The notes: a model not told the origin generated them from the sequence alone. A stretch of DNA of 47,142 bases from a virus (IMGVR_UViG_3300027790_000008:1-47142), one strand, 5' to 3'. Positions 6,101 to 29,668 are shown, numbered from the stretch's first letter. Made by a program: numbers and translations.

Positions 6101-6136
6101 CCGTGGTGGGAGACAGGCGACGGTCTGTTCCAATAG
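23..6136 (+). CDS. Giant internal virion (ejection) / large polyvalent protein, 3' part; true start at 46564, ~2195 aa total; zincin-like HExxH plus LPD1-like domain
   Basis: In frame with ATG 46564 across the circular join; motifs SFAHEWGHALDHY and YFTDPAEMFARAFEAWV; last and largest gene of the ejection-protein cluster. Confidence 0.8.
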   Translation: MRQEIDFLREKARQMDATAHSTGREKALGDIVQDVMKIQGLNSEIAALPINPAAKAVGEAETFGEGFDAALDDPLGVLRTFGLRSLPASAPSIAGAIAGQFLGGPIGAALMSGAAGHQTEMQLAMSDGIMRELADAGVDVKSPDAVAAYLNSNEAVLGDVIERALVRAGVISAADAATAGIAGKVVALARNSGRTARAGTAAAVGTTIEPIGEMAGEAGAQIASGESIQPGEVLAEGIGGVSQGGPTALAQTVAEGARNAPKAQAFKDFAKQIDQTLVAPATLGDVIQQLSTPQDTPIPRPAPPQQPVAPEADAPPVPDQPVAPAVSTQKQEEAPDDEASAPFVPEQNQPPESSAPIPDWDASVRENPTLRLKRPLTRAIIGKKGIRWREASGPRRGELTPLASEFKHRGITPQTYPGIFSPRGAADIDNIVYSEVFDTPGVLPEENGYIDRDALIDALVGEIEGRQPFFTRQSDRQAYEDYNRQLADAYRTYQAGEAPLDIVIPNFWRSEIGRKEDDFGDFFDADYDRQYEVQKGVDAALAVIDPDQTLTPHHRNAMIADIFENGGDFEEAVLRMMFAEMRSMEESQNATRTQETDGGIQGESAEGAGQPAIQRGAESVGPSGNQPGNRARAGTKEGGAIDVTDEGDQQVIPGAEKITDKDLAQRKMDEPKRGGDAAPPEGGLFDDDERNQTSLFERGNDVPSGDSVPKGERSGDGGRSVGSEQDAEQRGKSASRKGGSTVRPDATSDADGGGAGEQTSLLDAGRIGRRPPGRLGPSFLKFSFNNRTSVYQAALADAGIDPEKARLMPPDQQTPKIAKMIEDKFGVKVELPKIKVKRKNRFGRTVVESRTSISSREALDQLLDAYQNMTMLASVMGIPEYAIGLPIDGKGITLSLVSKNALRGALGMFSWGSSRKIILPGRSNSFAHEWGHALDHYLNNMVDNPTFTDLLTQNMDKKGLVQPLSPRRLVTEAFAHVMWSMFGDGMTVNALVLELQVQSAELGADGKPTKKAKDAQRLLTDMREGRRPPERLLSKYFKSSKEFDDLYGGGGYFTDPAEMFARAFEAWVGRSVAQISDLPQSFLSKGQWAYDSDHEDRLAMTFPKDTDADQFSIAMTRLSQAIRSTNLFGPDAAPKAPTDVATFDNNDLLRRAKRPGAVAQEVEEYRKFRNRLHSMIDAAISAETWRKKGRGIRRVYQTFINTQGEAMKAIANRQESAAARRALHNIRKQVAKDPGSGEATGAIYQEEVEMSAKRRVQKVRGAIRKRFGAKYLTDTDLRIVRGLLVGEKPDGTTAQHENLAGDLRGILNEIWYDLKNAGVSVGYQADYLPHILDTERVDADQDGFKVKAAEVYGLLFDREIVESDDPDTQGADINAVIRGLRRAFQSMPDGEREAQPRLSETDEAMITTYRETRKRVKDLQRRQAKSEDPDKYEDKIAAAIEDHETAKAEMLDMLRDRYSDHAAEKWFIKMGVGQINDFGTIGPASAFLEGRTLPKETGSIMAGFMQEDPIEMIQGYSFAAARIAEYAKRFGADHSKLETMLSAARDAGVSKEDIDAMKEMINGATGRMEASSVGYKKFATFFFTIGTLGLLTFATFTSLVESMVAGMRTGRTRDSFNGIIQNVDTLVRKGKREELISLANTIGLIAPHSMETVMENRMGADALDISPASQRAVQRFFVINGLTPLTNFQRVSMQPIAHSFILSLLREVQGGRRSVNSALRDQVAGERDGFAKGELNELGISKADRADLLEWLESLDGMPKMEDLFAPNGDMHPAGEIYSRAINRLVNEIIQNPLKTDRAVMANHPDHAAKYGIMSFIDAFTRNILLRNLKRGVKDTDSLGVRGVKRSANVALAMAPYAALLGGHVLTTILREALLNQDRWEEKREEGELEEWLFERAFARTGVLGRLDPLVQLVVGIKYERDLTTVTAGPYLGYFLQQMFVTGKALMSGYRNSKNTNTTEYNAVRAAYRLMIQPALAFGISSLGPAGPASQWISRGLLYSVSKHDTSAKFADTLVGEKGLKHRGDPPWWETGDGLFQ

Positions 6137-7143: not shown

Positions 7144-10056
7144 ATGGCTCTCTCAATTAACGACACCCGGTATTTTGCGGTAAGCGTTTTTCTTGCCGAA
7201 GACATCGCCAACGGGGGCACCCTTGTTCTGGATTATCCCTCTGGCGTGACGCAGGACGAATGCCTGCCAGACGGAACGCACTACGCGGAAACCACTCTTT
7301 TTTATAGGTTAAATGCGACAGACGACTTCACTGTTTCATTCGGCGCCTCCAACATCACAGTCACAAATGCCTTTGGTAAAACGTGGCCCGCCGGCATGAA
7401 AATGGACTTCGGGTTCGATCTGCGCGGGTTTAACCAGGACATTCTTGGTGTTGGCGACGGCGGAACAGGGTCTCGGACGGCGGCGGGTGCGGCCGCTGCA
7501 TTGAGGTTTGATCTGAGGTTTGACACAAGGGCAGCCGCAGAGGCAGGCACGACAGGAGCGGCGCAATATATCAAGGTCGGACCTTATCTGTACATTTATT
7601 CCGCGACCGGCACCGCATTGACCACTGGCGACGGGCGCACATGGTCGCCAGTTGCCGAAGGCAACACCATCTCGGTCCTGCATTGGGCGGAAAACACTGC
7701 CCCCGGCACCACAGATTTGACGGCAGCGGCGCAAAGCGCGATCGAATTTGCAAACGAACACGGGCTGAAGGTTGTCGGGGACGGGGTTGGCACGCCGATA
7801 GCGATCTCGGACACGCTGGTTCTGGGAAGTTCGTCGCATTGGCTGATTTTTGATGACCTGCACTTGCTGGCGATCGGCGGTGTTTGGCCGGACGACAGCG
7901 ACGGGTATTCCAAGCCGATGATTAACGCCGACGGCACGGATGGGGTCGGGTTCGAGAATGTTCTGATCGACTGTGGTTTTGTCGCTTCCGGCGTGTTCGT
8001 GGCCAACCAAGAAGGAAGCTATTTTGGACCGTCCTTTTTGGTCCAGCGCTGGCGGGCGCGGGCCGACGATATGAGCTATGGCGTGCGGACCAAAACCAAG
8101 GCCGGGCAATTGCGCGGTCTGCCTGGGGCGACAGCGCGCCAATACAAATGGGGTGACGCGGGCTTTGATCTCCAGGGGAATCGCACCGGCTATGGCTGGA
8201 AGATGGAAACCGCTGATTTCACACTTACAGATGTCTATGGATATTACACAAAATATCCCGTCCATAAGTCTGGTTTCGGTAGCTGGTCGATTACAAACTT
8301 GCACGCTTTCAACGGGGCTTTAAACACCGTTACTGATACATCTCAAATTTATGCTCTTTACATTGAACATCCTTCAAACGGTCAAGTAAATGGTATTTAT
8401 GCTGATAACGGAACAATTTTTGTTAATGCTGACGATCTTCATAATGGTGGTGCAACACTGACGATCAACGGCGGTGTAAATCATGAAAATGTGAACGGCG
8501 ATAACGATGTTGGTTTGAGATTTAGTACGTCTGTTCAAAACAACAATATGGCCGGTTTGGTCCTTACCGACTTCATCGGTACAGATGCGTCTGCCATTGC
8601 ATTGGATACTACCGGCATTGGCAGTTATACCGATCCTTTGAAAGCCTCAATTGATAACGTCGCTACAAAAAACGGAAGCATTCTAACGGCTCTAGGCGCG
8701 TATTTATCAAAACGTGGCATTTTCAAACTTATCAATGACGGAATGCAATTTTATTCGTCGGGCCTTCAGTTCATTTTTAACTTCAACAAAGGGTTGAAGA
8801 TTAATCTGGATTATGACGGTAATACTGGTAGTGGTGCTGGTAATGATCTGACTGTAACCGTAAACGGTACGACAACTACTTTCGTGTTGCGCGAAAATGA
8901 ACTTCAATTAAACATTCCTGTAAAAATTAATAATGACCTAATCGTGGACACGGATGCCTTATTCGTGGATGCGGTGAACAACAGAGTTGGTGTTAATACA
9001 GCATCTCCGGTGAACTCTTTTCATGTGAGCGGGTCGTCAAGGGTCACGGGTGTTACTTATGCAGAAAGCACAATAGTCAATGATGGAACCTTCTTTTCTG
9101 ACAGCACTAATGACGCGACGAAGGGAATTATTAGGGTTAGGGATAGTGCGGCCAACAACGCAGGCCAGCTCGTCGCGTCAGGCTTTGACGGGGCGGGGGC
9201 TAAGACTACGTGGACTTTCGAAAACACTATTGAGGACGTGGTTTTTGACGTTAACGGGGTAGGCATTGGGCAAACATCTCCGACAGCTAAACTTGATGTC
9301 TCTGAAGCCGCTACGTCCAGACCCCCAATAAGAGGGCGGGCATCCAGCGCTTCTTTCGTCAATTCGGTTCTTGCTACCTCGTGCGGGACCTTAGCATCTT
9401 CTTCGTATTTCTTCATGACTTCGTATAGTTCCGGGGGGGACTTGGAGTTCAGAGTTCGAGGGGACGGAGATGTCGCTGCAGACGGATCGTTTACAGGGGG
9501 TGGAGCGGACTATGCCGAGTATTTCGAATGGGCCGATGGCAACCCGGGCGCCGAAGATCGGCGCGGGCTTTCGGTGGTGCTGGATGGTGACAAGATCCGC
9601 CCGGCGAAATCTGGCGAAACACCGATTGGCGTGATCAGTGCGAACCCCAGTGTGATCGGCGACGGGGATATAGATCGCTGGAAAGGCAAATACCAGCGCG
9701 ACGATTTCTGCCAGCACATCCTTGAAGACTATGACGTGCTGGAATGGGTCGAAGTGGTCACGGAAGAGGTGGACGGGGAAAAGACGTCTCGCGACCTCCC
9801 GCACAGCTATCCCGAGGACGAAATCCCCGAGGGCCTGACACCGCCCAAGGATGCGACCCGCAAGACGCTTCAGCGCCGCAAGCTTGACCCGGCCTATGAT
9901 CCGGCCATGCCCTATATCCCGCGCGCCGAGCGGCCTGAATGGTCCACGGTCGGTCTCATGGGCAAGCTGCGGCTGCGCAAAGGCCAGCCGGTCGACTCTC
10001 GCTGGATCAAGATGCGCGACGTGAGCGCGGGCGTCGAGGAATGGCTTGTGCGGTAG
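7144..10056 (+). CDS. Tail or head spike/fibre with beta-helix-like middle and C-terminal peptidase G2-type autocleavage chaperone domain, 970 aa
   Basis: GTTDLTAAAQSAI beta-helix entry motif; NNRVGVNTASP and GVGIGQTSPTAKLDV fibre motifs; GGADYAEYFEWADGNP...YIPRAERPEWSTVGLMGKL. Confidence 0.8.
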   Translation: MALSINDTRYFAVSVFLAEDIANGGTLVLDYPSGVTQDECLPDGTHYAETTLFYRLNATDDFTVSFGASNITVTNAFGKTWPAGMKMDFGFDLRGFNQDILGVGDGGTGSRTAAGAAAALRFDLRFDTRAAAEAGTTGAAQYIKVGPYLYIYSATGTALTTGDGRTWSPVAEGNTISVLHWAENTAPGTTDLTAAAQSAIEFANEHGLKVVGDGVGTPIAISDTLVLGSSSHWLIFDDLHLLAIGGVWPDDSDGYSKPMINADGTDGVGFENVLIDCGFVASGVFVANQEGSYFGPSFLVQRWRARADDMSYGVRTKTKAGQLRGLPGATARQYKWGDAGFDLQGNRTGYGWKMETADFTLTDVYGYYTKYPVHKSGFGSWSITNLHAFNGALNTVTDTSQIYALYIEHPSNGQVNGIYADNGTIFVNADDLHNGGATLTINGGVNHENVNGDNDVGLRFSTSVQNNNMAGLVLTDFIGTDASAIALDTTGIGSYTDPLKASIDNVATKNGSILTALGAYLSKRGIFKLINDGMQFYSSGLQFIFNFNKGLKINLDYDGNTGSGAGNDLTVTVNGTTTTFVLRENELQLNIPVKINNDLIVDTDALFVDAVNNRVGVNTASPVNSFHVSGSSRVTGVTYAESTIVNDGTFFSDSTNDATKGIIRVRDSAANNAGQLVASGFDGAGAKTTWTFENTIEDVVFDVNGVGIGQTSPTAKLDVSEAATSRPPIRGRASSASFVNSVLATSCGTLASSSYFFMTSYSSGGDLEFRVRGDGDVAADGSFTGGGADYAEYFEWADGNPGAEDRRGLSVVLDGDKIRPAKSGETPIGVISANPSVIGDGDIDRWKGKYQRDDFCQHILEDYDVLEWVEVVTEEVDGEKTSRDLPHSYPEDEIPEGLTPPKDATRKTLQRRKLDPAYDPAMPYIPRAERPEWSTVGLMGKLRLRKGQPVDSRWIKMRDVSAGVEEWLVR

Positions 10057-10169: not shown

Positions 10170-10427
10170 ATGCTGAAGGAAATATTTGATGATGCGACCA
10201 GCAGCTTTGTGAGCTGGTCTGTCGTGGCAATCGGAGGCGGGTTTGTGTGGCTGATACGACGTGTTTTCACAAACCAGAAGCAAATCGAACTGTTGCAGCG
10301 TGATCTGAAATTGCGCGAAGAAACCAGGCAGCGGGATCGTGAAGATTTGCAAGAAGTGAAGGCTGACGTCAAGGAGCTGGGCCGCGACATCCGGCGCATT
10401 TTTGAAACGCATGGAGGGATGCAATGA
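10170..10427 (+). CDS. Small membrane protein (one TM plus coiled coil), holin/antiholin-like
   Basis: Hydrophobic FVSWSVVAIGGGFVWLI then charged heptads; directly upstream of the endolysin with an ATGA overlap. Confidence 0.55.
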   Translation: MLKEIFDDATSSFVSWSVVAIGGGFVWLIRRVFTNQKQIELLQRDLKLREETRQRDREDLQEVKADVKELGRDIRRIFETHGGMQ

Positions 10428-11191
10428 AACTCGCCAAAAACTGGCGGCGGAACTTGCTGCTGTCCTATACGGTATGGGCCTTTTACACGCTGGCCGCGCT
10501 CACTGTCGCGCCTGATCTGATTTACCTCTGGACCGGGATCGACACGAACCCGGCGGTCTGGTCGATCCTGAGCCTCGTGACAATCATCCTCGGGCTTTTC
10601 GGGCGGTTTGTCATCCAGACGCCCGAAGGCCGCTGGAGGCGCCGCTCTGTGGTCGGCCTGATTATCCTCGCAACAGCCTTTCTCGCATTCCCCGCGCTGG
10701 CGCAGACGACCGAACGGCAGACGATGGAAGTCGCCACGCCCCTTGTGATGAAATGGGAGGGGGAGAATAGATGCTCGGACGATCCGGCACTGAACTGTGC
10801 GTACCGGGATATTGTCGGGGTGCCGACGATCTGCTTTGGCGAGACGCAGGGCGTCAGGATCGGGGACCGGGCAACGGATGCCGAATGCCGCGCCATGCTT
10901 CAGCGCCGTCTTGCAGATGATTATCGCGCTGGCCTGCATCGGTATTTCACGGACGAGACCAGGCGCGCCCGGCTGACGCCAAAACGGGACGCGGCATATG
11001 TTTCACTGGCCTATAACGTGGGCATCCGCGGGGCTGGACGCTCCACCGCCACCCGCCGCCTGAACGCGGGCGATCTTGCCGGTGGCTGCAACGCTCTGAC
11101 GTGGTGGAACAAGGCTGGCGGGCGCGTCGTGCGCGGTCTGGTTCGAAGGCGCGCCGACGAGTATCGGCTTTGCATGGAGGGTCTTGGATGA
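10424..11191 (+). CDS. Endolysin (GH24 phage lysozyme) with N-terminal holin-like TM segments and a signal-like sequence
   Basis: WEG...AYRDIVGVPTICFGET catalytic E-D-T motif; SLAYNVG and GLVRRRADE; three hydrophobic segments before the catalytic domain. Confidence 0.9.
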   Translation: MKLAKNWRRNLLLSYTVWAFYTLAALTVAPDLIYLWTGIDTNPAVWSILSLVTIILGLFGRFVIQTPEGRWRRRSVVGLIILATAFLAFPALAQTTERQTMEVATPLVMKWEGENRCSDDPALNCAYRDIVGVPTICFGETQGVRIGDRATDAECRAMLQRRLADDYRAGLHRYFTDETRRARLTPKRDAAYVSLAYNVGIRGAGRSTATRRLNAGDLAGGCNALTWWNKAGGRVVRGLVRRRADEYRLCMEGLG

Positions 11192-11478
11192 TCCCGCTCA
11201 AATTGGCCCCCTGGCTGATCCTCGCCGCTCTTGCCCTAGCGGCTCTGACCGGCTGGCAGGGCTATCGGATGGGCTATTCGGCCAGCGAGAATGTGCAGCG
11301 TCAGAAGCTGCTCGATCAGATTGAGGCCGGGCGGAAATTGGAAGATGCCCGCCGCGTCATTGCGCAAGAGCGTGACCGGCTGGCACGAGAATTGGAGGGA
11401 GCGGCCTATGCGGACCCCGTGGTTGTCGAGCGTTGCCTTGGTGCTGGCCGGGTGCAGCGCCTCAACGCCATCCGTTAA
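11188..11478 (+). CDS. Inner-membrane spanin (Rz-like), 96 aa
   Basis: N-terminal TM then coiled coil; ATGA overlap with the lysozyme; overlaps a lipoprotein ORF. Confidence 0.75.
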   Translation: MIPLKLAPWLILAALALAALTGWQGYRMGYSASENVQRQKLLDQIEAGRKLEDARRVIAQERDRLARELEGAAYADPVVVERCLGAGRVQRLNAIR

Positions 11479-11632
11479 ATCAGCAGACCCTTGCGCCAAG
11501 CCGGTGGTGATCCCGGCGGATGGGGTGAGCGATCGGCAGGTTGAGGTGTTGTGGAGCCGGGATCGTCGCGCGCTGCTGGACTGTGGCGACAAGGTGGAAA
11601 CTCTGAGCGGCCGAAATGTCAGGCCACAATAA
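11408..11632 (+). CDS. Outer-membrane spanin lipoprotein (Rz1-like), 74 aa
   Basis: GGAGGGA RBS; MRTPWLSSVALVLAGC lipobox; starts inside the i-spanin in another frame. Confidence 0.75.
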   Translation: MRTPWLSSVALVLAGCSASTPSVKSADPCAKPVVIPADGVSDRQVEVLWSRDRRALLDCGDKVETLSGRNVRPQ

Positions 11633-11693
11633 CCCGGCCACGTCGCGCACCGGGAACTGACCAACGCGCGGCCAACCCCGAGGGGTAAACGAT

Positions 11694-11993
11694 ATGCGAT
11701 CCATTTTGGCTATTATGGCCCTTCTTTCGCCAACGCTAGCGGGCGCGCAATCGAACTGTATGGCGCGAGAGCTGGTCACTCAGGTGCTGATCGACCAATA
11801 CGGCGAAAGCATCACAGGCGAAGGGCTGGTCACAATGGGCGGCGTTCCGGCGATCTTGCAAGTTTGGTCCTCGCCCGAGACAGGCACGTTCTCTGTGGTT
11901 ATCACCCGCCCGGATGGCATAGCCTGTGTGGCGGCATCTGGTGAGAACTGGATTGCTGTCGAACCGCAGGGCGATCCCGGCGAGCCATCGTAA
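11694..11993 (+). CDS. Secreted/periplasmic hypothetical protein, 99 aa
   Basis: GAGGGG RBS; signal peptide MRSILAIMALLSPTLAGA; two Cys. Confidence 0.7.
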   Translation: MRSILAIMALLSPTLAGAQSNCMARELVTQVLIDQYGESITGEGLVTMGGVPAILQVWSSPETGTFSVVITRPDGIACVAASGENWIAVEPQGDPGEPS

Positions 11994-12087
11994 TCCGGGC
12001 CGCGCGGACCAGCGGCATTAGCAAAGGAAAGGCACGACCCAAGAGGTTCCCGAGTGGAGCCGTCCCGTCTGTCCCTAGACGTTTCTT

Positions 12088-12119
12088 GCCCCGCTGGCCC
12101 TATGGCTGGCGGGGCTTTT
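12088..12119 (+). terminator. Intrinsic terminator ending the late/lysis transcript
   Basis: GCCCCGCTGGCC-CTAT-GGCTGGCGGGGC followed by TTTT, between convergent genes. Confidence 0.75.
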
Positions 12120-12143
12120 GCGTTTGGGGGTAAGTGGACTGGT

Positions 12144-12338
12144 TCAGTAGGTGAATTTTCGGGCGTGTTTCTTGCCGCCTTCAATCGCGTCCTCGACTGT
12201 CTGGCAATTCTCGACGCCGCCGAGGTTCTGCCGCGTCACGCCGCACGAAACGCGAGCCTGAAAGGGGCCGCTGTTTTTGCTGTCGAACACCTGAACCCGG
12301 ATGCCTTGTGATTGCAGTTCGTCGTAGTGGGTCGCCAT
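12144..12338 (-). CDS. Left-array cassette L8, hypothetical protein, 64 aa
   Basis: GAAAGGAAA RBS within the junction repeat. Confidence 0.7.
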   Translation of the reverse strand: MATHYDELQSQGIRVQVFDSKNSGPFQARVSCGVTRQNLGGVENCQTVEDAIEGGKKHARKFTY

Positions 12339-12362
12339 GTGTTTTCCTTTCGGTGGGGGTTT

Positions 12363-13295
12363 TTAGGATTGACTGTCTAGGGCGCGAACCGCGTCAATTG
12401 CGGCGGTCCAGCCAAGACGGAATGAATCGGCATTCTGCGAAGGCGTATCAACGGGAAGGCCGTGCTTTGCCAGCGCCTCCTTCAATGCGTCATGGTTGTA
12501 TGCGGGCTTGTCGTGCAGGCTCATGTTTTTGCCTTTCGGGGGTTTTGCCGCGAGCGGGGCTGGATAACCGTCATGCACGACGCCATCCAGTTCCCGGCCC
12601 TTGGCCTTGATTTCGCGTTGGTTGCGGCCTTCCCATTGCTTGAACAGGAAAGGCACATCGGCGGCGGCACACTGGTCGCGCAGGCTGCGAAACCAGTCAG
12701 GATCAACAGGACGATAGGCGCTACCGTTTTCGCCCCCGGTAATGACCCATTCCAGCCCGTCGATATGATGCGATAGATCGACCGGGCCAAGCAGCGGCTC
12801 CATACTCAAGAAGTGAACCACGGCAGGCACGGCAGTCAGGTGCGCCAGCCGGTCGGCTTCTTTCTGGCTTTCGACGGTCGCCCCTAGCCACACGTTCGGA
12901 TAACCGTTGCCCCAATCCTTGGGCAGATAGCGCGCGATGTTCTGCGGGCGCTTTGTCAGCATGAGGAAATCGAGGTTCGGGCACTGCCGGATCAAGGCCC
13001 ACAATTCATGCCGCCAAGCGGTCAAGATGCTCTTATGGTTGTCGAACACGTCAGCCAGTGAAGCTACAAACACACGCGGGCGCTCGGCAGCGCCTTGAGC
13101 CTGCTTATTCCATTTGATCGGGTTGCCCCATGTCTTTGTGCGCGTCCTCGCTGCATGTGGCCCCCAACGCTCACCGCCGAAGCGGTTATCCCAAGCCTCT
13201 GCATAGCAGTGATCGCAAGCTGCGCTGACCTTTGTGCAGCCGATCCATGGGTTGAACGTATGGGTGGTCCATTCGATGCCACTGTTCTCGGCCAT
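12363..13295 (-). CDS. Phage Gp37/Gp68 (DUF5131-type, radical-SAM-like) protein L6, fused in frame to a 53-aa cassette L7 (12363-12524)
   Basis: IEWTTHTFNPWIGCTKVSAACDHCYA, VFVASLADVF, LTKRPQN, SMEPLLG, WVITGGE, FLFKQW and GRELDG motifs. Confidence 0.9.
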   Translation of the reverse strand: MAENSGIEWTTHTFNPWIGCTKVSAACDHCYAEAWDNRFGGERWGPHAARTRTKTWGNPIKWNKQAQGAAERPRVFVASLADVFDNHKSILTAWRHELWALIRQCPNLDFLMLTKRPQNIARYLPKDWGNGYPNVWLGATVESQKEADRLAHLTAVPAVVHFLSMEPLLGPVDLSHHIDGLEWVITGGENGSAYRPVDPDWFRSLRDQCAAADVPFLFKQWEGRNQREIKAKGRELDGVVHDGYPAPLAAKPPKGKNMSLHDKPAYNHDALKEALAKHGLPVDTPSQNADSFRLGWTAAIDAVRALDSQS

Positions 13296-13321
13296 GTGGT
13301 GCCCTCCGGGGATTGTTGGAT

Positions 13322-13651
13322 TCAGGAAAATTCTTCGCTGGCCCACTCATGCCAGTCGAAATCACAGCCGCACGACCATTTGGTGAACCAGCCACCCTTG
13401 CTGTCTGGCAGGTCCCCCATATCGTGTGGGGTCTCGTGGCAGTTGGGACACTCTGGCATTGAGACCGTGACCACCGTTCCCGGCGGGAAGGTTCGCGCGG
13501 AGAGCATAAGCGTCCCCTCGCGCCCGACTGGCCCGTCTCCGTCCATGTCGCCCTCCGCCGAACCCATCCAGCGGGGCTCGTGCCGGTCGCAGTTGGGTCC
13601 GGCGTAAACGTCAGGCGCGTGGCGCGCTCTCATGGTTTCGCGTAGCTGCAT
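13322..13651 (-). CDS. Left-array cassette L5, hypothetical Zn-ribbon protein, 109 aa
   Basis: CPNC...CGC; GGAGG RBS in the junction. Confidence 0.75.
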   Translation of the reverse strand: MQLRETMRARHAPDVYAGPNCDRHEPRWMGSAEGDMDGDGPVGREGTLMLSARTFPPGTVVTVSMPECPNCHETPHDMGDLPDSKGGWFTKWSCGCDFDWHEWASEEFS

Positions 13652-13667
13652 AGTGCCTCCGGGGTTT

Positions 13668-13898
13668 TCAGGACTGTTTGGTTAGAACTGCCGCTGCGGT
13701 TTCGAGAATTTTCTCACAAGCGGGATGCTTTGGCGTCCACGCGGCATCGGCTGATACCCGGTTTAGGGCGCTCTCTAGTTCGCGGATGCGAGCGTTGGCC
13801 ACGTCTGCGCGGACGTATTCGGTATAGCCTGATCGGCTGGGCTTGCGTCTAACCCAGTGATCGAGGTTGGCCCATATCCGCTCTGGTGTCTCTGACAT
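13668..13898 (-). CDS. Left-array cassette L4, hypothetical protein, 76 aa
   Basis: MSETPERIW...TEYVRAD motif common in small phage proteins; GGAGG RBS. Confidence 0.75.
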   Translation of the reverse strand: MSETPERIWANLDHWVRRKPSRSGYTEYVRADVANARIRELESALNRVSADAAWTPKHPACEKILETAAAVLTKQS

Positions 13899-13911
13899 AT
13901 CGGCCTCCGGG

Positions 13912-14163
13912 CTAGTTGGATTCAGCAGTTCCGTTTCTGACTTCATGCCATTCTACGGCTGTATCTGGCGTTTCGGCAGCTATCCAGTGGGTTCCGGCCC
14001 ATGCCTCAACATCGACGGGCAATCCGGCCATCGACCGATCAGCAAATTGGAAATGCCCGCCCGCACCGTACAAGGAATATCCTGTGTCCCATATCGCCAT
14101 TTGGACGCCAGCGACCCCCTTCAACTTGACGTAACAAATTTGCATGTCTTTTGGCGTTTTCAT
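13912..14163 (-). CDS. Left-array cassette L3, hypothetical protein, 83 aa
   Basis: ATG at 14163 after the junction RBS; ends ESN* inside the next junction. Confidence 0.7.
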   Translation of the reverse strand: MKTPKDMQICYVKLKGVAGVQMAIWDTGYSLYGAGGHFQFADRSMAGLPVDVEAWAGTHWIAAETPDTAVEWHEVRNGTAESN

Positions 14164-14180
14164 TCTAGGTGCCTCCGGGG

Positions 14181-14582
14181 TTAGTTGGATTCGGGTTTCG
14201 ACGGGATGTATTCTTGGTTCCGGCTGGCCTTGAATTGGAACCCGGTGAAAGTCAGGCCATGCTTGTCCTGCCACGCGTCCATTGTCTCGCGCACCATCTT
14301 TTCAAGGTCGGCGCGGAGTTCCGGTTTGATCGGAAAGATTTCGACGTCTCCCTCGGGGTCGCCGTGATCCTCGTAGGCGCGTTCTTCGGCTTCCTCTGCG
14401 AACATGTGGCCGTCAAAGTATCGGCTTATCTTGATATTGGCTGGCTTCATCGCCTCAACAATGTGGCCGCCGTCCTGTTCTTCGGATGCGATGTAGACCG
14501 CTTCCTCTCTGGTTTCGCATTCGGTGTGGTAGCGTTCATCGTCGTGGCCGACCCACCATTTCCAGTTCTCTTGTTCGCTCAT
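14181..14582 (-). CDS. Left-array cassette L2, acidic hypothetical protein, 133 aa
   Basis: GGAGG RBS; ends ESN* inside the junction. Confidence 0.8.
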   Translation of the reverse strand: MSEQENWKWWVGHDDERYHTECETREEAVYIASEEQDGGHIVEAMKPANIKISRYFDGHMFAEEAEERAYEDHGDPEGDVEIFPIKPELRADLEKMVRETMDAWQDKHGLTFTGFQFKASRNQEYIPSKPESN

Positions 14583-14603
14583 GTGGTATTCCTCCGGGGG
14601 TTT

Positions 14604-14951
14604 TTAGGACTGGTTCGCCAAGCGCAGCAAAGCGTCCGCATGGCAGGGTTTGTCGAGCGGGCACCAGCAAGCGAGGTCTTTGCCCGCCAACTCGTGCAGG
14701 CTTCGCCGAATAACTACCCGCTTTGCCGCCATGCTCTCACGGGTTTGCCCTTGTGGGATGCCCCAATCTTCGCCGCGCATCCACCCCGAGAAAGCGTCAA
14801 CGGCAGCCCCGCGCCCGTCTCCATAGCCAATCTCGGCGGCGGCGCGAAAGTCGAACGGGTTCCCCCACTTGCTAGGCCGCGCCACAATCACAGCGTCAGG
14901 GTGGTCTTTGCGCCACGGCTTCTGGCGGGTCATTTGAATGCGCTTTGGCAT
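14604..14951 (-). CDS. Left-array cassette L1, DUF4326-type protein, 115 aa
   Basis: VARPSKWGNPF...LAGKDLACWCPLDKPCHADALLRLAN signature. Confidence 0.85.
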   Translation of the reverse strand: MPKRIQMTRQKPWRKDHPDAVIVARPSKWGNPFDFRAAAEIGYGDGRGAAVDAFSGWMRGEDWGIPQGQTRESMAAKRVVIRRSLHELAGKDLACWCPLDKPCHADALLRLANQS

Positions 14952-15002
14952 GGTGCCTCCGGGGTAGTTGGATTGCGGCGCGGCATTGCGCCCTTGCACA
15001 CT

Positions 15003-15054
15003 AAATTACACCAGAAATTGGCGTATTGCAACCGCCAAGTTTTGGCGTTATGGT
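15003..15054. promoter_or_regulatory. Symmetric divergent sigma70-type promoters sharing a palindromic -35 TTGCAA
   Basis: TTGCAA at 15026-15031; 17 bp to TATGGT (15049-15054) rightward and 17 bp to TAATTT (complement of 15003-15008) leftward; TTGGCG/CGCCAA inverted repeats in the spacers. Confidence 0.7.
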
Positions 15055-15060
15055 GGCTGC

Positions 15061-15222
15061 ATGACATGGCAAGATTACCTCAGCAATAAAGAGCGCGCGG
15101 AACTTGAGCGGGCAGAGCGCAAGCGCGACGACGCGCGAGCGGAGTACAACGCTCTTAGGGTGAAGCTGAAAAGCCGCGCGGACAATCGCCGCAGGAAGGA
15201 GCGCGCCAGTGAAAAGGACTAG
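15061..15222 (+). CDS. Small basic coiled-coil protein, 53 aa, probably leaderless
   Basis: MTWQDYLSNKERAELERAE...; ATG 6 nt after the -10 box; no RBS. Confidence 0.65.
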   Translation: MTWQDYLSNKERAELERAERKRDDARAEYNALRVKLKSRADNRRRKERASEKD

Positions 15223-15772
15223 CCTCTATCGCCATTTTGACGCGAGCGGTAAGCTGCTCTATGTCGGCATCTCGGCCAGCTTCATGGCGAGGCTATGCCA
15301 GCATTCGTCCACGTCGCATTGGTATTGGCGTATCGCCAAGGTCGAGGTCGAGCATTTCAAGACGCGCGCTCATGCGCAGTATGCCGAAGCCTTGGCGATC
15401 CGCGATGAAGGGCCGCTTTACAACAAAGCGAAGCCAGTCCCTCGCAATCCTGACATTCCGATACCTAAGCTGGTGATGCCTCCCCCTGCGCCTGTCGTGC
15501 CTGACACACCGCGCAAGATCGGCTATATCTGCGCGGAAAGCCGGTTCGTGGGGCCGCAGTCGGTAGGCTTGCGTCATGTCGGTGTACCGGACGCCCTGAC
15601 CTTCGTTGACGTGCTTGAAGAAGTGGGCGACGAGCGCCCGATGCTCATTCGCATGGCAAAGACAGCGCAACATGCCGGAACGGAGGTCTATCACCTTCAT
15701 AGCTCCGCGATCCCGCAGGACTTGCGGGCTATCTTGGAGGGCCGTGGCGTGGTTATCAAATGCGCCGCCTAA
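15209..15772 (+). CDS. GIY-YIG nuclease-family domain fused to a degenerate resolvase-like domain, 187 aa
   Basis: SLYRHF...LLYVGIS...RLCQH...E..AI..E.PLYN; Pro-rich linker; KIGY...RPML...RGV C-terminal domain. Confidence 0.7.
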   Translation: MKRTSLYRHFDASGKLLYVGISASFMARLCQHSSTSHWYWRIAKVEVEHFKTRAHAQYAEALAIRDEGPLYNKAKPVPRNPDIPIPKLVMPPPAPVVPDTPRKIGYICAESRFVGPQSVGLRHVGVPDALTFVDVLEEVGDERPMLIRMAKTAQHAGTEVYHLHSSAIPQDLRAILEGRGVVIKCAA

Positions 15773-15845
15773 GCGAGTTCGCCCGGCGGCGAAACAATTT
15801 CAACGCTGCGCGTTCGCGCGGCAGGGTCTAAACAGGAGCGAGATT

Positions 15846-16070
15846 ATGGCGGGTTATGCGATCAGGTCAGTTTGCCCGTGCGGGTGGTGGTGCACGCCTG
15901 CCTTCGGTTCAGAGTTTTTTTCCCGCACCGACTTTCCGGTCTGCCCAAAATGCGGTGCTCCTGCGCGCGATCGGGAGCTTGTGTCAGCTCGCATCGTAAA
16001 GGTTGAGGGCCGCCCATGGTGGCGGTTTCCAGAATGGCGCCTCGAGCTGGCGCCGAGTGAATCCAGATAG
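15846..16070 (+). CDS. Right-array cassette R1, Zn-ribbon protein, 74 aa
   Basis: CPCG...CPKCG; AGGAG RBS; ends ESR* in the junction. Confidence 0.75.
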   Translation: MAGYAIRSVCPCGWWCTPAFGSEFFSRTDFPVCPKCGAPARDRELVSARIVKVEGRPWWRFPEWRLELAPSESR

Positions 16071-16080
16071 GAGCGAGGCG

Positions 16081-16173
16081 ATGCCAGTACCGAACCTGCA
16101 ACCGGGCGAATTCATTTGCCGCCACTGCTTCTTGCGGCGGCGGTTCGGGCCGGAAATCGAAATAGATTTTTGA
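16081..16173 (+). CDS. Right-array cassette R2, 30-aa peptide MPVPNLQPGEFICRHCFLRRRFGPEIEIDF
   Basis: Read by eye, below the ORF-track cutoff; fills the space between two junctions exactly. Confidence 0.65.
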   Translation: MPVPNLQPGEFICRHCFLRRRFGPEIEIDF

Positions 16174-16192
16174 TCCAGAAAAGGAGCAAGGC

Positions 16193-16429
16193 ATGGCGAA
16201 ATACCAAGGCGGATTGACAGAAGCCCCGGCAATTGGCGCGTATCTGCCGCAGCATTCGGACGGTCCCGCGCGGACGCCATGCCCTAGCTGCGACGGCATT
16301 GCGATTGTCGTTTGGCGACCGGGCGGTGCTTTTCAGCAGCGGACAGAATGCGCTTGCGGGCGAAAAACACGTTGGGTGATGTGCGGCCATGATGCTGAGC
16401 CTGATACAACCGACGACGAATCCAGATAG
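16193..16429 (+). CDS. Right-array cassette R3, Zn-ribbon protein, 78 aa
   Basis: CPSC...CACG; ends ESR* in the junction. Confidence 0.75.
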   Translation: MAKYQGGLTEAPAIGAYLPQHSDGPARTPCPSCDGIAIVVWRPGGAFQQRTECACGRKTRWVMCGHDAEPDTTDDESR

Positions 16430-16440
16430 GAGAGCAAGGT

Positions 16441-16590
16441 ATGGTTTGGGGAAAGTCAAAAGAGAATGTGATGCGTATTCTGCCGCGGGGCTTGCGGGGC
16501 AACGTGCGAGGCAAGTTTCTCTGCAAGGGGCATGACGCGCTTTACTGGCGCACTCGCTGGACCGAAGTCCGGCTTATGAAGTTTTGGTAG
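16441..16590 (+). CDS. Right-array cassette R4, basic 49-aa protein (MVWGKSKENVMRILPRG...MKFW)
   Basis: Read by eye; runs from junction to junction. Confidence 0.65.
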   Translation: MVWGKSKENVMRILPRGLRGNVRGKFLCKGHDALYWRTRWTEVRLMKFW

Positions 16591-16608
16591 TCTGAATAGG
16601 AGCGCGAC

Positions 16609-16860
16609 ATGGCTGAAACAGTGGAAATTGACATGCCCAAGGATGCGGCGGTGCGCGTTATGTGCCAAGACCTGCACAAGATGCGTGAAGGGCTGGCCGC
16701 GATGGGGCTGCACGCGCACATTCTCGATCAGGTGAGCGACAAGCTGAAAGAGCAGGCGCGTCAGATTGAGCATCACAGAGCGGATCGCGCCTACATCATC
16801 GGCCACAATGACGGGTGGGATGCGGCAATGGCTACCGGGCTTGCGGGCGACGTGGAATAG
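16609..16860 (+). CDS. Right-array cassette R5, hypothetical protein, 83 aa
   Basis: AGGAG RBS; stop TAG is part of the next junction. Confidence 0.75.
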   Translation: MAETVEIDMPKDAAVRVMCQDLHKMREGLAAMGLHAHILDQVSDKLKEQARQIEHHRADRAYIIGHNDGWDAAMATGLAGDVE

Positions 16861-16870
16861 GAGCGAGGTC

Positions 16871-17107
16871 ATGGACGATTTGAGGCCGGGCGCTGGTCTG
16901 CCAGAAATTGAGTTTCTGCCGATCCAATGCCCCAAGTGCGGGCGCACAGCGAATAGCGCGAGGGATGATCTAGACCCTCCGTCGGCAGTTCGTGCAGAGA
17001 TTTTATGCCCCGATTGCGTCGGTGGCGACTTCGGGACCACGACATATTTCGACGCGGAGGGCAGGGAGTTGGTGCCCGGTCCTGACGGAAGCGAAGAACC
17101 CAAATAG
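16871..17107 (+). CDS. Right-array cassette R6, Zn-finger protein, 78 aa
   Basis: CPKC...CPDC; stop TAG in the junction. Confidence 0.75.
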   Translation: MDDLRPGAGLPEIEFLPIQCPKCGRTANSARDDLDPPSAVRAEILCPDCVGGDFGTTTYFDAEGRELVPGPDGSEEPK

Positions 17108-17147
17108 GAGAAAACTATGCCAGAAATTCAAGCACCAAACACACCAC

Positions 17148-18254
17148 TTAGATCCCGCGCTGATCCACGACGCTCAAGAGTTCGTCCATCGTGTGATGGC
17201 GGTACACCCGCAGGATTGTCCGGGCGTCGGTGGCCGTCAACTTGGCGACGGTCTCGATCGCAACGCCCCGCCGCAACATGAGGGTAATGGCCGTGTGCTT
17301 CATGACGTGCGGCGTGACCCATCCATAGCCAATGTCCCGCATGAACGTGTCGAAGGCCGACGCAGACCGCATCCCGCAGACCCGCTTGCCCCGGCCTCGG
17401 ATCAAAAAGGCTTCTTCCAGATCGGCCCGGATGCCGACGGTCATAGGAACCACGGGACGCCGCTTTCTGGATACAACCTTATCCGGCGGGTTGAAGTCGA
17501 TCTTCCCGGTGATGAAATCAACCTGCGGCCCGAACCGAAGATCCAGAAGGACGCCTTTCCGCGCGCCATAGGCCAGCCCCATTTTCGTGAACAGGCGGAC
17601 CCCCAGAGGCGCATCCGGCAGGCGGGCGATAATCTCCCGCTCCTGCTGTTCGGTTAGCCAGGTATCCCGCCCTTGCCCGTCAGAAGGCTTCTCAAACCGA
17701 TAGACGGGTTTGCCGCGGATCATTCCCTTGCGGCTCCCGAAGTTCAGGACAGCTTGCAGGGCGGTAATCTCCCTGCGGATCGTCGCGGGCTTGACTGCGC
17801 GTTCTCCGTGGCTCCCAGCGGCTCTACGGCGCGCGTAAGCGTCAACGTCCTGATCCCGGACCGCCACAGCCGCCGTCTTGCCAAAAGCTGCCAGCGGGGC
17901 GCGCATGTTCTGCCTGTCGGACTTTTCATTCCCGCGGCGCCGTGAGTGCATGTAGATGTACGCCTCGAAGACGTCGGCAACCGTCTTGTCGTCAAAGTCG
18001 TCGTCGGCATTGCGCACCGTCAAGAAGCGGGCCAACGCGGCCTCTGCCTTATCGCGGCTTCCAGTTTTGGTGCTTTTGCGCTTGGACCGCCACCCGCCGC
18101 CTTGGTTTTCAGACCACCGGATTTCGTAATATCCGAATGAGTTGGGTTCGTCGCTCAGATGCGGGAAGGTTCTCATGACGTGTACGGCTCTATCAGGTCG
18201 ATGATTTGAGAGGCGACGGACAGGGGCGGGCATCGGTGCTTCTTCACTGGTCAT
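17148..18254 (-). CDS. int: Tyrosine recombinase / phage integrase (start codon uncertain)
   Basis: Arm-binding-like N-terminus (YEIRW...RKSTKT), core-binding KPATIRREITALQAVLN, catalytic YGAR, PHVMKHT and VYRH. Confidence 0.88.
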   Translation of the reverse strand: MTSEEAPMPAPVRRLSNHRPDRAVHVMRTFPHLSDEPNSFGYYEIRWSENQGGGWRSKRKSTKTGSRDKAEAALARFLTVRNADDDFDDKTVADVFEAYIYMHSRRRGNEKSDRQNMRAPLAAFGKTAAVAVRDQDVDAYARRRAAGSHGERAVKPATIRREITALQAVLNFGSRKGMIRGKPVYRFEKPSDGQGRDTWLTEQQEREIIARLPDAPLGVRLFTKMGLAYGARKGVLLDLRFGPQVDFITGKIDFNPPDKVVSRKRRPVVPMTVGIRADLEEAFLIRGRGKRVCGMRSASAFDTFMRDIGYGWVTPHVMKHTAITLMLRRGVAIETVAKLTATDARTILRVYRHHTMDELLSVVDQRGI

Positions 18255-19079: not shown

Positions 19080-19411
19080 GTCACCGCCCCGCCAAGTCCG
19101 CAGTAGCCTTCCTTGCGCTCGATGCCATAGCCTTCGGGGTTCCGCACGATCCGCTGCACCGCCTTGTTGTGAAAGCCGACAACCGCCTTCTCCTTGCCGG
19201 TGCGCTCCTTGTGCTGTTCCGCCAGGGAATACATTTCCCGCTTGATTGCGGCCGAGAACTCGGGATCTGTGGCGAGCCGCGGCTTCCATCGCCAGACCGG
19301 GCAGGCATCGCCCATGCAGTTCGGGCCTTTCTTGTCGGCAAATGTCCGGGCCAGCGGACAGGGCATGGTTTCACGGGCCTGCGCCACGGAAAGATAGAGG
19401 GTATCAGTCAT
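19076..19411 (-). CDS. Hypothetical Cys-rich phage protein, 111 aa
   Basis: CPL...CMGDACPVWRW...GYCGLGG motif. Confidence 0.75.
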   Translation of the reverse strand: MTDTLYLSVAQARETMPCPLARTFADKKGPNCMGDACPVWRWKPRLATDPEFSAAIKREMYSLAEQHKERTGKEKAVVGFHNKAVQRIVRNPEGYGIERKEGYCGLGGAVT

Positions 19412-20417
19412 CGGCCTTCTCCTTCGCGAATTTCATGGATTGATCCCAGCCGCCAAGCCATTGCCCGGCCATGACGTGATCGTTGTGCGGGCATTCCGTG
19501 CGGGGTGTTCCGGCCTGCTGTGCCTTCGCGCCATCGGTGAACAGATCGTCCATCGGCGTTGCGTCGGACGTGTCGATTTCATCCGTCCAGTGGCCTCCAT
19601 CCGCGTCGAGGATTTCGCCATCGACCACCTTGGGTTCGTCGGCCTGCGCTTCCTTGAGTTTCTGAGCGAGGTTCTTTTGCGGCTCCGGGGTAATGTCCTT
19701 GATAGGGGCGCTGTCCTGCTCGACCATCACCCGGCGCATGTCTTCGGCGGACAGGTCCAGACGCTTGCAGAGGCGACGGATCACCGTCTTCTTCCACATT
19801 TCGTCCGTCCATTGCTGCCAGATGCCGTTCGGGTTTTCGTGCTTGCGCTGCTGGGGGGAAGACCGACGTATCTTCTCGATCTGGTCGCGGTCCATGAACT
19901 CCCGAACGATTGTTCCGTCCTTGAGTTTCGCGATTGCATAGGCGGCAACCGCACCGCCCTTCTCGCCAAAAAGGATCGGCTTGTGGATCAGGGTTTCATT
20001 GTCGCCCACCACATATTCAAACCGTCCGTCATCCAGTTCCCCTTGATAAACAATGTGCGCCCGAATGTCGGACACATCACCCGAGCGGCGGGCCATCTTG
20101 ATAAGGCCGAACACCATTGGCATTGCCTGGGCGACCTTACCTTCCTTGGTGAAGAACGGCACAATTGCCGCCTCCCGGCCATCCGGCACCAGCCCTGCGG
20201 CGGCAATGGTGCGGATCGACTTCATGACTGTCGCCGGGTTGCAATTCAGGATTTCAGGATTGTCCTGCACCGCCACAACGGCTGCGTTCCGAAACGCCTC
20301 CACTGTCACGTTCGACGGCAGGGCGAGTTCCTTCCGGTCGATCAGCGCGTTAAGATCCTGCTTGAATGCCACGATCGGTTTGACGGCGGTCTTCTTTGTG
20401 GTTGCTACCTCGTTCAT
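19404..20417 (-). CDS. recT: RecT-family ssDNA annealing protein with C-terminal RMF-like extension
   Basis: GLVPDGREAAIVPF, GLIKMARRSG, AYAIAKLKDG, W...DEMWKKTVIRRLCK. Confidence 0.92.
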   Translation of the reverse strand: MNEVATTKKTAVKPIVAFKQDLNALIDRKELALPSNVTVEAFRNAAVVAVQDNPEILNCNPATVMKSIRTIAAAGLVPDGREAAIVPFFTKEGKVAQAMPMVFGLIKMARRSGDVSDIRAHIVYQGELDDGRFEYVVGDNETLIHKPILFGEKGGAVAAYAIAKLKDGTIVREFMDRDQIEKIRRSSPQQRKHENPNGIWQQWTDEMWKKTVIRRLCKRLDLSAEDMRRVMVEQDSAPIKDITPEPQKNLAQKLKEAQADEPKVVDGEILDADGGHWTDEIDTSDATPMDDLFTDGAKAQQAGTPRTECPHNDHVMAGQWLGGWDQSMKFAKEKADD

Positions 20418-20420
20418 GTC

Positions 20421-21401
20421 TTACTCCAAGTTCGGCAAAAGTCCGTGCTTCTGCATCTGTTCAAATCGCTTCTGCATACTGTCCGGGTATTGGTAGGCAA
20501 TCGGGTCAGGAGCCACGCCAGGCCACTCCCCCGTGTCGAGCCCGTGCTTCATCCTGTCCAAGCCCTGACGGATCAAAACCCGCGCCCAATAGATGCTCAC
20601 AGGGTCAATCTCTATCGGCACAACCTCGAAAGGCGCGGACGTCTGCACGAACACAAGCGCGCACCGCTCTGCCGTGGTCCCGAAGACAACTTCTGCGCCC
20701 ATGACCGCCAGCGCCATTTGCAGCGGATAGCCGAAGTCCGTGACAGACCTTTGCGCGGAGATAATCAGATCTCGCGATTTCGGGGCAAAGGTTTTCAGAT
20801 CCCCGAAGTCAACGCCATTCGACGGAATGCAGTCCGGGCGGGATTTGATCCATATGCCCGTGATCGGATCTTGCCAGACCATGCTGATTTCGATCAGGTC
20901 GGACGTCAGAACCTCGACGGCAAAAGTGTTCTCCCGAAGGTTCTCACCCATGCGCATAATCTTCTCGACCTGTTCTTCTTTCAGGAGCAAGCGACCGGCG
21001 GCGTTGGCGTCGAACTCTGCCCACCATTCCGCACCTTTTGCGGCAGCATCCGACCATACACCGTCCCGCTCAAAGGCTTTCACCTGTACTGCGGTCGGGC
21101 GGCGGGGCGCATCCTTCGGCACATAGACAAAGTGTTCGTCAAATACCTCGTCACCGAGGATCAGCGCATGAGCGGCCCGGCCAAGGATCAGACTGTCGGA
21201 CGGTTCCTTTTCGGGGTAGCGATCCGGGTTCAGATCAGACGTTTTCCAGAACGCATGAGGGCTTTGCAGGGCCAGAAGCCGAATACCCGTTGAACTGACA
21301 GAAGGCCCATCGCAGCATTGGCTGTGATACCAAGACATGCTCATGCGATAGGCGCCGGGTTCGGTGATGATTTCGCCGTCTGCAATCTCGCGAATGTTCA
21401 T
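20421..21401 (-). CDS. Exonuclease VIII-like PD-(D/E)XK nuclease (RecE partner, DUF3799-type)
   Basis: GRAAHALIL, EISMVW, KSRPD, DLKT and YPLQMA; immediately upstream of recT. Confidence 0.88.
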   Translation of the reverse strand: MNIREIADGEIITEPGAYRMSMSWYHSQCCDGPSVSSTGIRLLALQSPHAFWKTSDLNPDRYPEKEPSDSLILGRAAHALILGDEVFDEHFVYVPKDAPRRPTAVQVKAFERDGVWSDAAAKGAEWWAEFDANAAGRLLLKEEQVEKIMRMGENLRENTFAVEVLTSDLIEISMVWQDPITGIWIKSRPDCIPSNGVDFGDLKTFAPKSRDLIISAQRSVTDFGYPLQMALAVMGAEVVFGTTAERCALVFVQTSAPFEVVPIEIDPVSIYWARVLIRQGLDRMKHGLDTGEWPGVAPDPIAYQYPDSMQKRFEQMQKHGLLPNLE

Positions 21402-29275: not shown

Positions 29276-29668
29276 TCATTGCGTTACCGCGCTGTCGCCT
29301 CGCTTCTTGTTTTCTGCAATCTTTTTTAAGTTGCAGGCGGTTGCGGCCTCTAATTCAGCTTGTGAAGCCTTAAGTATGTCTGGGTTTTCGTACTCCCAGA
29401 CCTTCATCGCCTCATAGCGCATCCGCCATTCGGCTAAATCATCGTCGCTTCGAACGAGTGTATTTGGTACGTGCCGAAAGAGGTGTGTCTGAGTCATCAA
29501 GATTGCAGGATATTTTGGCTTTCGGTGGCACCATCCGCCATCGAAGCCGTGCGGAGATTCACCGGTCAAGCCGCTGACTTCTATGCTTGGCTCTCGGTAC
29601 TCCAACCCGCCGGTAGGCGAGTGCCTGATTAAATAGACGTATACATGCTCGTCATTGTAGATGCTCAT
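29276..29668 (-). CDS. Hypothetical protein, 130 aa
   Basis: AGGAG RBS before ATG 29668; lower GC. Confidence 0.6.
   Translation of the reverse strand: MSIYNDEHVYVYLIRHSPTGGLEYREPSIEVSGLTGESPHGFDGGWCHRKPKYPAILMTQTHLFRHVPNTLVRSDDDLAEWRMRYEAMKVWEYENPDILKASQAELEAATACNLKKIAENKKRGDSAVTQ

Follow-up and report, generated by a model that had tools for sequence, protein, structure and literature searches.

Divergent arrays of exchangeable gene cassettes in a phage genome, with a Gin-like serine invertase as a candidate for acting at their junctions

How phages acquire and rearrange their tiny accessory genes while keeping each one whole is a long-standing question, for which conserved linkers between the genes have been proposed and the promoter-early stem-loop (PeSL) elements are the tested case that we found. 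The question is raised again by positions 12144–18254 of the virus record IMGVR_UViG_3300027790_000008 (the window: the whole stretch analysed, a complete virus record of 47,142 bp with direct terminal repeats), in which two divergent arrays of small genes run outwards from a common centre with a short stereotyped junction between one gene and the next. A preliminary description of the locus had read it as a platform for acquiring or shuffling gene cassettes. Here the linker was defined to the base, the borders of the cassettes were mapped and a candidate enzyme was found in intact and decayed versions. The arrays almost certainly shuffle at the junction. The junction may in turn be the target of a Gin-like serine invertase, whose gene is whole at the head of the array in some relatives and decayed in the window, a proposal that we hold tentatively and at slightly under an even chance.

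The arrays comprise eight leftward and six rightward small open reading frames (ORFs), unrelated and tightly packed as first described, with gaps mostly of 10–26 nt. From stop to start the gaps measured 13–26 nt in the left array (0 between the cassettes L6 and L7) and 10–19 nt in the right array, and no pair of cassette proteins in the window was similar at E < 0.01. Left junctions read A-RTCC-6 nt-CC-CC-GGAGG-spacer-ATG and right junctions A-RTCY-RRA-TAGGAG-spacer-ATG. The two types do share a core, as had been claimed, but this core is A-R-T-C-Y rather than GAATCC-A and does not occur at every junction, being absent or altered at L6/L7, at R6/R7 and after R7. All junctions within one array are directly repeated, and perfect identity between left junctions of the window extends over 5–14 bp. 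They are distinct from the long palindromes of attC sites, as also claimed, given the gaps of 10–26 nt and the absence of any junction palindrome among the 25 longest inverted repeats of the window.

The left pattern matched the window seven times (six in the array) compared to 1.75 times in shuffled sequence, and the right pattern nine times (five in the array) compared to 1.54; 0 of 100 shuffles reached either count, with patterns that were derived from the tested junctions themselves. A junction matrix trained without the window's cassette families ranked seven left array junctions at the top of 94,254 positions (18–24 bits; best match outside the array 13.5 bits) and placed six of its top eight right-type matches inside the array. 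In 401 host-family genomes the strict left pattern gave 29 matches in 23 genomes compared to 2 for the reversed control, and in G001 all six junction matches lay within 3.7 kb. The junction is no common ribosome-binding site (RBS), because of this matrix ranking and its rarity in host-family genomes; the motif is commoner in the arrays than at RBSs elsewhere, and its box is absent from this genome's other gene starts. A first pattern for the right junction was too loose (about 1,500 matches) and was used only for loci passing array filters; most actinobacterial matches of a pattern scan were set aside as chance, with only loci passing these filters kept.

The locus set was assembled from DNA-pattern scans and from loci fetched with the invertase, and run X1, a possible source of the window, and locus L298, equal to the window in length, were excluded from all counts. 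Both junction types recurred across dozens of phages and Rhodobacteraceae prophages. A total of 57 loci yielded 215 distinct cassettes belonging to 179 protein families, 27 of which were present in more than one locus and one alone in both array types. Among 22 cassette pairs with at least 80% DNA identity, the upstream neighbour differed in 16 of 16 readable cases and the downstream neighbour in 12 of 12, although the pairs are not independent (several per family in places, with two pairs being within-genome duplications). Ten DNA blocks that five window cassettes share with other phages ended no more than 10 nt from a junction on both sides (20 of 20 ends), where windows of ±10 nt make up 14.7% of the region; the nominal p-value overstates this clustering, part of which selection for whole genes predicts. 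Two 94%-identical cassettes stand in opposite order in G005 and L264, and cassette L2 is present twice in a Brevirhabdus prophage (L204; 97% and 99% DNA identity to the window) and once in a Salipiger prophage (L234). The phages G004 and G005 carry both array types, yet neither matches the window's portal or capsid proteins. The cassettes leave no room for a promoter and are exchanged as units at the site. Gene order is therefore not fixed among relatives, which replace, delete and reorder cassettes at the junctions, and on this point the shuffling platform of the preliminary description is supported.

Breakpoints in near-identical relatives, mapped from contigs only and with 12 small-share runs and two RNA runs of a single study set aside, likewise fell at junctions rather than at random. 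In run X2, an RNA library whose contigs may be DNA and presumably come from a single phage, the centre and right array had 0–1 differences from the window and L6 had none, with about 980 other bases replacing L1–L5 and ending in the flank of the head junction; identity to the window ended at 13311, the edge of the run of C (C-run) in junction L5/L6 (13296–13322, minus strand). A contig from X3 shared 11039–12542 with the window and ended at the L6/L7 C-run. Identity in X4 ended at 13661, again in a C-run, and the 3′ part of an L4-like cassette continued there through box and C-run into 12 other bases and then the terminator-like hairpin that closes the left array. A 151-nt contig from X8 ran from the end of R4 across a 15-bp repeat into the beginning of R3 (back-joint from 16417 to 16059), and another X8 contig carried a foreign gene ahead of R4. 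This joint together with the foreign gene favours the order R4, R3 in that relative, a reordering rather than a circular cassette.

Comparison of junction families showed where one cassette ends and the next begins. Conservation set in abruptly at −1, where A predominated (74% of the 85 left families, 94% of the 16 right ones); the RTCY served as alignment anchor, and its own conservation is not independent. C was present at +12 in 93 of 97 families and at +13 in 80 of 97, and the distance from the box to the Shine–Dalgarno (SD) sequence was exactly 14 in 48 of 85 left families. In 70 of 85 left families and all 16 right ones, the R base fell on the third codon position of the upstream gene. 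Positions +4 to +9 of the box were shared at 0.85 by junctions with the same upstream gene compared to a background of 0.59 (p about 1e-4, 12 pairs), with 0.69 for the same downstream gene (p 0.07, not significant). The SD–ATG spacer was shared at 0.65 with the same downstream gene compared to a background of 0.35 (p about 1e-4, 13 pairs), with 0.30 for the same upstream gene (not significant). The left 14 bp thus accompany the upstream gene, the RBS spacer accompanies the downstream one, and most exchanges therefore lie between +9 and the SD, in the C-run. A left cassette is accordingly composed of C-run, RBS, gene and a 14-bp end (A-RTCY-6 nt-CC-CC), in or directly beside which the stop codon usually lies; terminal cassettes keep box and C-run though no RBS stands behind them. 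A likeness between the box and the inverse core of integrons was discounted, as AAC is not invariant across variants, and so was a constraint at the peptide level (C-terminal ESN/QSS), as in 21 of 85 families the box comes after the stop codon.

As catalysts, the preliminary description had considered the neighbouring tyrosine integrase, RecET and a GIY-YIG/resolvase-like fusion at the head of the right array. The fusion was present as described: R1, or ORF 15209 (15209–15772, plus strand), joins a GIY-YIG domain to a decayed serine-invertase catalytic domain (about 15479–15772) that aligns to the clade described below at 97.7% probability. It has lost the catalytic Ser, the DRLGR motif, the E helix and the helix-turn-helix, and a resolvase half without catalytic residues and DNA-binding domain argues against the fusion as catalyst. 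The better candidate is likely, from sequence comparison, the intact invertase ancestral to this decayed half. In six loci (L016, L020, L248, L257, L264 and L388) the gene in the slot of ORF 15209 pointed away from the left array and encoded an intact small serine recombinase with the catalytic Ser and a DRLGR-type motif (Pfam Resolvase, 137–146 bits); the nearest solved relative of this enzyme is Gin (4m6f, E 2e-49; Tn3 resolvase 2e-32). GIY-YIG domains also recurred at arrays, being C-terminal in the head gene of G005 (41097–41891), N-terminal in the window and L072 and free-standing near 6479 in L398.

A fetch with the enzyme alone gave 56 loci, a search of host-family genomes added one new locus, and searches with the window's integrase or ORF 15209 gave one distant locus and none, respectively. 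A quick tree search placed 27 invertases in one clade (support 99), and a GYARVST motif was present in 27 of 27. At least two strong junctions were found at 22 of 27 clade loci compared to 0 of 30 more distant homologues; the matrix behind this count was partly trained on these loci, and an earlier count by regular expression had shown the same trend. In the core clade 14 of 17 genes ended in a right-type box compared to 0 of 29 outside the clade. The 200 bp upstream of core-clade genes held 2.35 boxes compared to 0.21 outside the clade and 0.09 in background, and the promoter of these genes carried two boxes 13 bp apart and often a mirror pair, with none at the window's centre. In a nine-member sister group (L415–L423) the gene followed a left-type end, and the upstream gene, compared by eye, changed at the C-run.

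Decayed versions were kept as open frames, with 50% identity between the window and L072 and 47–71% within the G004 type, and this conservation among themselves suggests a second, non-catalytic role. The G004 type is a conserved family of 160 amino acids with no Pfam match in the invertase slot (G004 19828–20313, L342 6400–6882, L055 6128–6607, and L071, L265 and L302). Its similarity to the invertase profile was weak (16.6%); for a structure model of mean pLDDT 59.6, a wide fold search returned a serine integrase at the top (Z 6.2, root-mean-square deviation 3.9, 129 aligned), a weak lead, and Foldseek returned nothing at E < 0.001. The G005 head gene was weakly similar to the invertase (profile 8.2%).

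Under the proposed mechanism, the invertase would bind the RTCY box, which is repeated across its own divergent promoter, and cut at the fixed CC, so that cassettes would be excised and inserted between directly repeated sites. A gene that came to lie between two sites and was cut back to the border of the arm would turn into a new cassette, and the stops abutting the box as well as the codon-phase bias would follow from this. Phages without the enzyme, the window included, would trade cassettes with enzyme supplied by a prophage or by another phage infecting the same cell, or else through recombination at short homologies in the junction. More broadly, and with somewhat greater reserve, temperate phages of Rhodobacteraceae and probably of other hosts may possess a Gin-type integron-like system with a two-way promoter and a shared pool of hundreds of accessory families, in which arrays of the window's type are served in trans. 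Were the invertase the catalyst, this would be a cassette system outside IntI/attC in which a small serine recombinase acts on many short direct sites, a property of interest to DNA assembly.

Several observations weigh against an acting invertase. No Pfam resolvase (PF00239) was found in the window, whose arrays lack an intact enzyme, nor in the complete phages G004, G005 and G406. Of the 37 array groups located by DNA pattern, only 6 held an intact enzyme in the DNA fetched; two had a relic of the window's type, six strong and two weak matches to the G004 type, and 21 no match, counts in which many loci are short, L012, L120 and L124 may be chance and G005 is among the 21. The clade occurred in 3 of 401 host-family genomes, though exchange has been recent (0–1 substitutions in the shared parts of X2). 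The invertase gene itself behaves like a cassette, so its link to the arrays could be hitch-hiking, and the clade members are related to each other. A conserved symmetric site near the enzyme was not found in 26 clade loci, the junctions are one-armed and right-type junctions are out of the register in which left junctions were compared with known sites, while the core is CC, unlike the -A of dix sites. The promoter boxes partly overlap the −35 and −10 hexamers. At base level, L6 in X6 and X10 broke exactly at the ATG, SD–ATG spacers differed between 97%-identical cassettes, and R6 in X3 and X5 broke at +7 and +5 of the right junction, which speaks against a single fixed point. Finally, about a dozen distant intact homologues stood at similar divergent arrays of small genes, mostly without the box when inspected by eye (L425, L427, L428, L430, L431, L436, L437, L439 and L449–L452, at a divergent promoter with TAGGAGCG-type and AGGCC-type junctions). 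These homologues widen the system and do not tell a cutting from a regulating role.

Alternatively, the junctions may be linker repeats like the PeSLs of T4, with general recombination (of RecT/Rad52 type, or by host RecA) acting on 5–25 bp of similarity and selection keeping whole genes with stop and RBS. The invertase or its dead derivatives would then be a long-established opening gene of the right array, one that moves no cassettes and may repress the divergent promoter; autoregulation is known among resolvases. We regard this as a serious alternative with a sizeable chance, short of even, of being correct. It accommodates the mobility of arrays in complete phages without the enzyme, the breakpoints in the C-run, in the SD and at the ATG, the X8 joint of R4 to R3 at a perfect 15-bp repeat and the retention of decayed enzymes as open frames. 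The window encodes RecT and a RecE-like exonuclease (19404–21401, minus strand), the catalyst for this phage in such a model, and G005 a Rad52-family gene; relaxed Rad52-like recombination (De Paepe et al. 2014, PMC3945230) explains module exchange in temperate phages. General pairing is nonetheless disfavoured because the perfect identity of 5–14 bp between the window's left junctions (5–15 bp over all junctions) is shorter than the minimal pairing segments of 23–34 bp given in the same paper (23–27 bp for Red-beta and 31–34 bp for RecA), and the joint of cassette to terminator in X4 shares the C-run region only. Of the four annealing families searched, none is common to the array phages: among five such phages RecT, ERF and AAA_24 each occurred in 0 and Rad52 in 1 (G005), which also speaks against RecET as the catalyst. 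By this model the sharp left edge at −1, the fixed 14-bp register and the box on terminal cassettes and on the invertase promoter go unexplained.

It is improbable, to our reading, that the junction is primarily an expression signal (for translational coupling, or a site for RNA processing or protein binding) at which breakpoints cluster since gene borders tolerate illegitimate exchange. A stop codon and a strong SD do lie within the junction, TCC can pair with the GGA of the SD, the R base is biased to codon position 3, and such a role has been assigned to the start-associated sequence (SAS) repeats of Cluster K mycobacteriophages (PMC3203893). The box, however, goes with the upstream gene, persists at array ends where there is no RBS and is missing from the genome's other gene starts; the hairpin has only 3 bp, and crossovers in near-identical relatives fall inside the junction. 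Very improbable is an IntI-like role for the converging tyrosine integrase (17148–18254, minus strand; of ordinary prophage type and read as a bystander), which adjoins the right array and has counterparts near arrays in L016, L264, L055, L010, L009 and G005, since these integrases are mutually unrelated (best long alignments 25–29% identity, with two matching no other) while the junction is constant, NCBIfam gave the window's protein only weak XerC/XerD/XerA matches far under the cut-off, and no attC-like palindromes occur at the junctions.

Integrons use the tyrosine recombinase IntI, an attI site and attC-bearing cassettes. The arrays resemble them in the compact row of cassettes behind one promoter, a recombinase gene at the head that is oriented away from the left array, a gene-less head site and stop codons that often fall inside the site; they differ in a site of about 14–25 bp with no palindrome, in a small serine recombinase as the candidate, in two divergent arrays with separate junction types in a phage and in having no IntI-type tyrosine recombinase tied to the array. 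Arbiol et al. (2010, PMC2839356) describe T4-type PeSLs as elements of about 100 bp, each carrying a sigma70-like promoter and a stem-loop terminator, where ORFans come in, drop out or are substituted, and identify no dedicated recombinase. Like these, the junctions are repeated intergenic elements that end in SD and ATG and at which genes are gained, lost and replaced; unlike the PeSLs as described there, they measure 14–25 bp, have neither promoter nor stem-loop of their own, overlap the upstream stop and are linked to an invertase clade.

The closest enzymatic parallel is the Din family (Gin/gix, Hin/hix, Cin/cix and Min/mix). The gix and hix sites have a 12-bp arm, a 2-bp core and a GG register in PMC3241671 (Table 3), and secondary crossover sites of Cin are treated in PMC4270481; by eye, the left junction appears to follow this layout of 12-bp arm, 2-bp core and GG, with TC outside and AACC inside, and many sites in one region recall Min. 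Compared by eye with dix and gix sites, TC and AAC(C) fit the register whereas the first base and the core differ. The enzyme of the relatives is nearest to Gin among solved structures. Unlike the Din family, there is no 26-bp site with two inverted 12-bp arms: the sites are direct, one-armed and have a CC core, they bound whole gained or lost genes rather than an invertible segment, and the window's own copy of the enzyme is dead. The SAS of Cluster K mycobacteriophages, for which Pope et al. (2011, PMC3203893) propose a role in translation, resemble the junctions as short asymmetric repeats that are rare in hosts and whose SD lies a few bases ahead of the ATG of non-structural genes. They differ in that the conserved left part of the junction forms the end of the gene upstream, coincides with exchange points and is retained where an array terminates. 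The arrays are thus integron-like in outcome and, by defining features, neither an integron nor a PeSL array nor a classical invertase system. No description of such arrays or of an invertase-linked phage cassette system was found in a literature search outside which most subscription papers lay. Whichever mechanism applies, the junction motif offers a way to collect early accessory genes, among which host-interaction factors are likely to be found.

At the centre of the locus, a predicted divergent promoter pair (15003–15054) has a common palindromic −35, TTGCAA at 15026–15031, with 17-bp spacers to TATGGT and TAATTT, and three TTGGCG/CGCCAA hexamers overlap the −35. The symmetric promoter of the preliminary description therefore stands as to its elements, although it lay below the threshold of the promoter scan, and both arrays are predicted from the sequence to be transcribed from it. 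The GC hairpins described at the two heads fold in silico but are not apparent at the array heads of relatives. Head junctions in which no cassette ends were also described: this holds for the left (14952–14974, minus strand; one base shorter than that of X2), but in the right head junction (15825–15845, plus strand) ends an ORF of 23 codons (15760–15831), probably a relic of the invertase E helix. A 29-codon ORF after the L072 homologue of ORF 15209 resembles it, and a junction of the same type closes the intact invertase gene in relatives. R0 (15061–15222, plus strand; 53 amino acids) precedes ORF 15209 and has homologues upstream of the intact invertase in L402 and L410.

On the minus strand, the left array opens with L1 (14604–14951), a DUF4326 protein of 115 amino acids; truncation of L1 by its junction was ruled out, since the same motif lies at or just before the end of its homologues. 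Junction L1/L2 (14583–14611) leads to L2 (14181–14582; 133 amino acids), the canonical junction L2/L3 (14164–14191) to L3 (13912–14163; 83 amino acids), junction L3/L4 (13899–13922) to L4 (13668–13898; 76 amino acids) and junction L4/L5 (13652–13675) to L5 (13322–13651; 109 amino acids), of which copies 86–89% identical are present in L234 and L255. L6 (12525–13295) is a DUF5131 (Gp37/Gp68-like) protein. The damaged junction L6/L7 (12525–12550), regular in relatives, has lost box and stop and retains C-run and RBS, and L6 therefore reads in frame into L7 (12363–12524; 53 amino acids) as a single ORF of 310 amino acids. Junction L7/L8 (12339–12370) is followed by L8 (12144–12338; 64 amino acids, no family match in a profile search), a terminal junction detected by matrix scan (12126–12140, minus strand; box and C-run with neither RBS nor gene behind) and the terminator-like GC-rich hairpin (12088–12115). 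The candidate PADLOC models PDC-M41B and PDC-M30B matched L6 at about 190–197 bits, and the only other match of the PADLOC scan was a weak one to the GIY-YIG domain.

The right array, on the plus strand, comprises R2 (15846–16070; 74 amino acids), R3 (16081–16173; 30), R4 (16193–16429; 78), R5 (16441–16590; 49), R6 (16609–16860; 83, with an 82% identical copy in G005) and R7 (16871–17107; 78, with an 83% identical copy in G004). Between them lie the junctions R2/R3 (16060–16080), R3/R4 (16172–16192), R4/R5 (16419–16440; 15 bp the same as R2/R3), R5/R6 (16589–16608) and R6/R7 (16852–16870), the latter with a degenerate box and the overlap of stop and RBS retained, and a last right junction follows R7 (17097–17116). 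Beyond it, 17117–17148 is a candidate attP region, in which identity with relatives begins or ends at 17132–17140; the ORF of 54 amino acids that starts at 17117 is probably no cassette.

The array region is flanked by an endolysin and spanin on its left and by the tyrosine integrase, RecT and the RecE-like exonuclease on its right. The host of the phage is inferred to be a member of the Rhodobacteraceae because named genomes of this family bear arrays marked by the same junction (Salipiger, Brevirhabdus, Marinibacterium, Pseudooceanicola, Sulfitobacter, Maritimibacter and Thioclava). Only two cultured phages matched the presumed major capsid protein (39624–40724; 48% and 39%), and blastn matches to cultured phages were confined to DUF5131 stretches. 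The endolysin (10424–11191) has a long hydrophobic N-terminal part with a weak DUF7940 match followed by a lysozyme domain, and RecT (19404–20417) carries a C-terminal Rmf/CrpP-like domain (Pfam RMF, E 1e-5; NF041886, 32.9 bits with a cut-off of 28). An ORF of 2037 amino acids (23–6136) had no PHROG match, and GC falls to 44.7% at 8001–9000 within a pre-neck appendage-like gene of 970 amino acids. A second cluster of small leftward genes is present on the minus strand at 29276–31903, with a left-type-like junction at about 31143–31180 that has a box-like start, a C-run and GAAAGGAAACACC ahead of the ATG.

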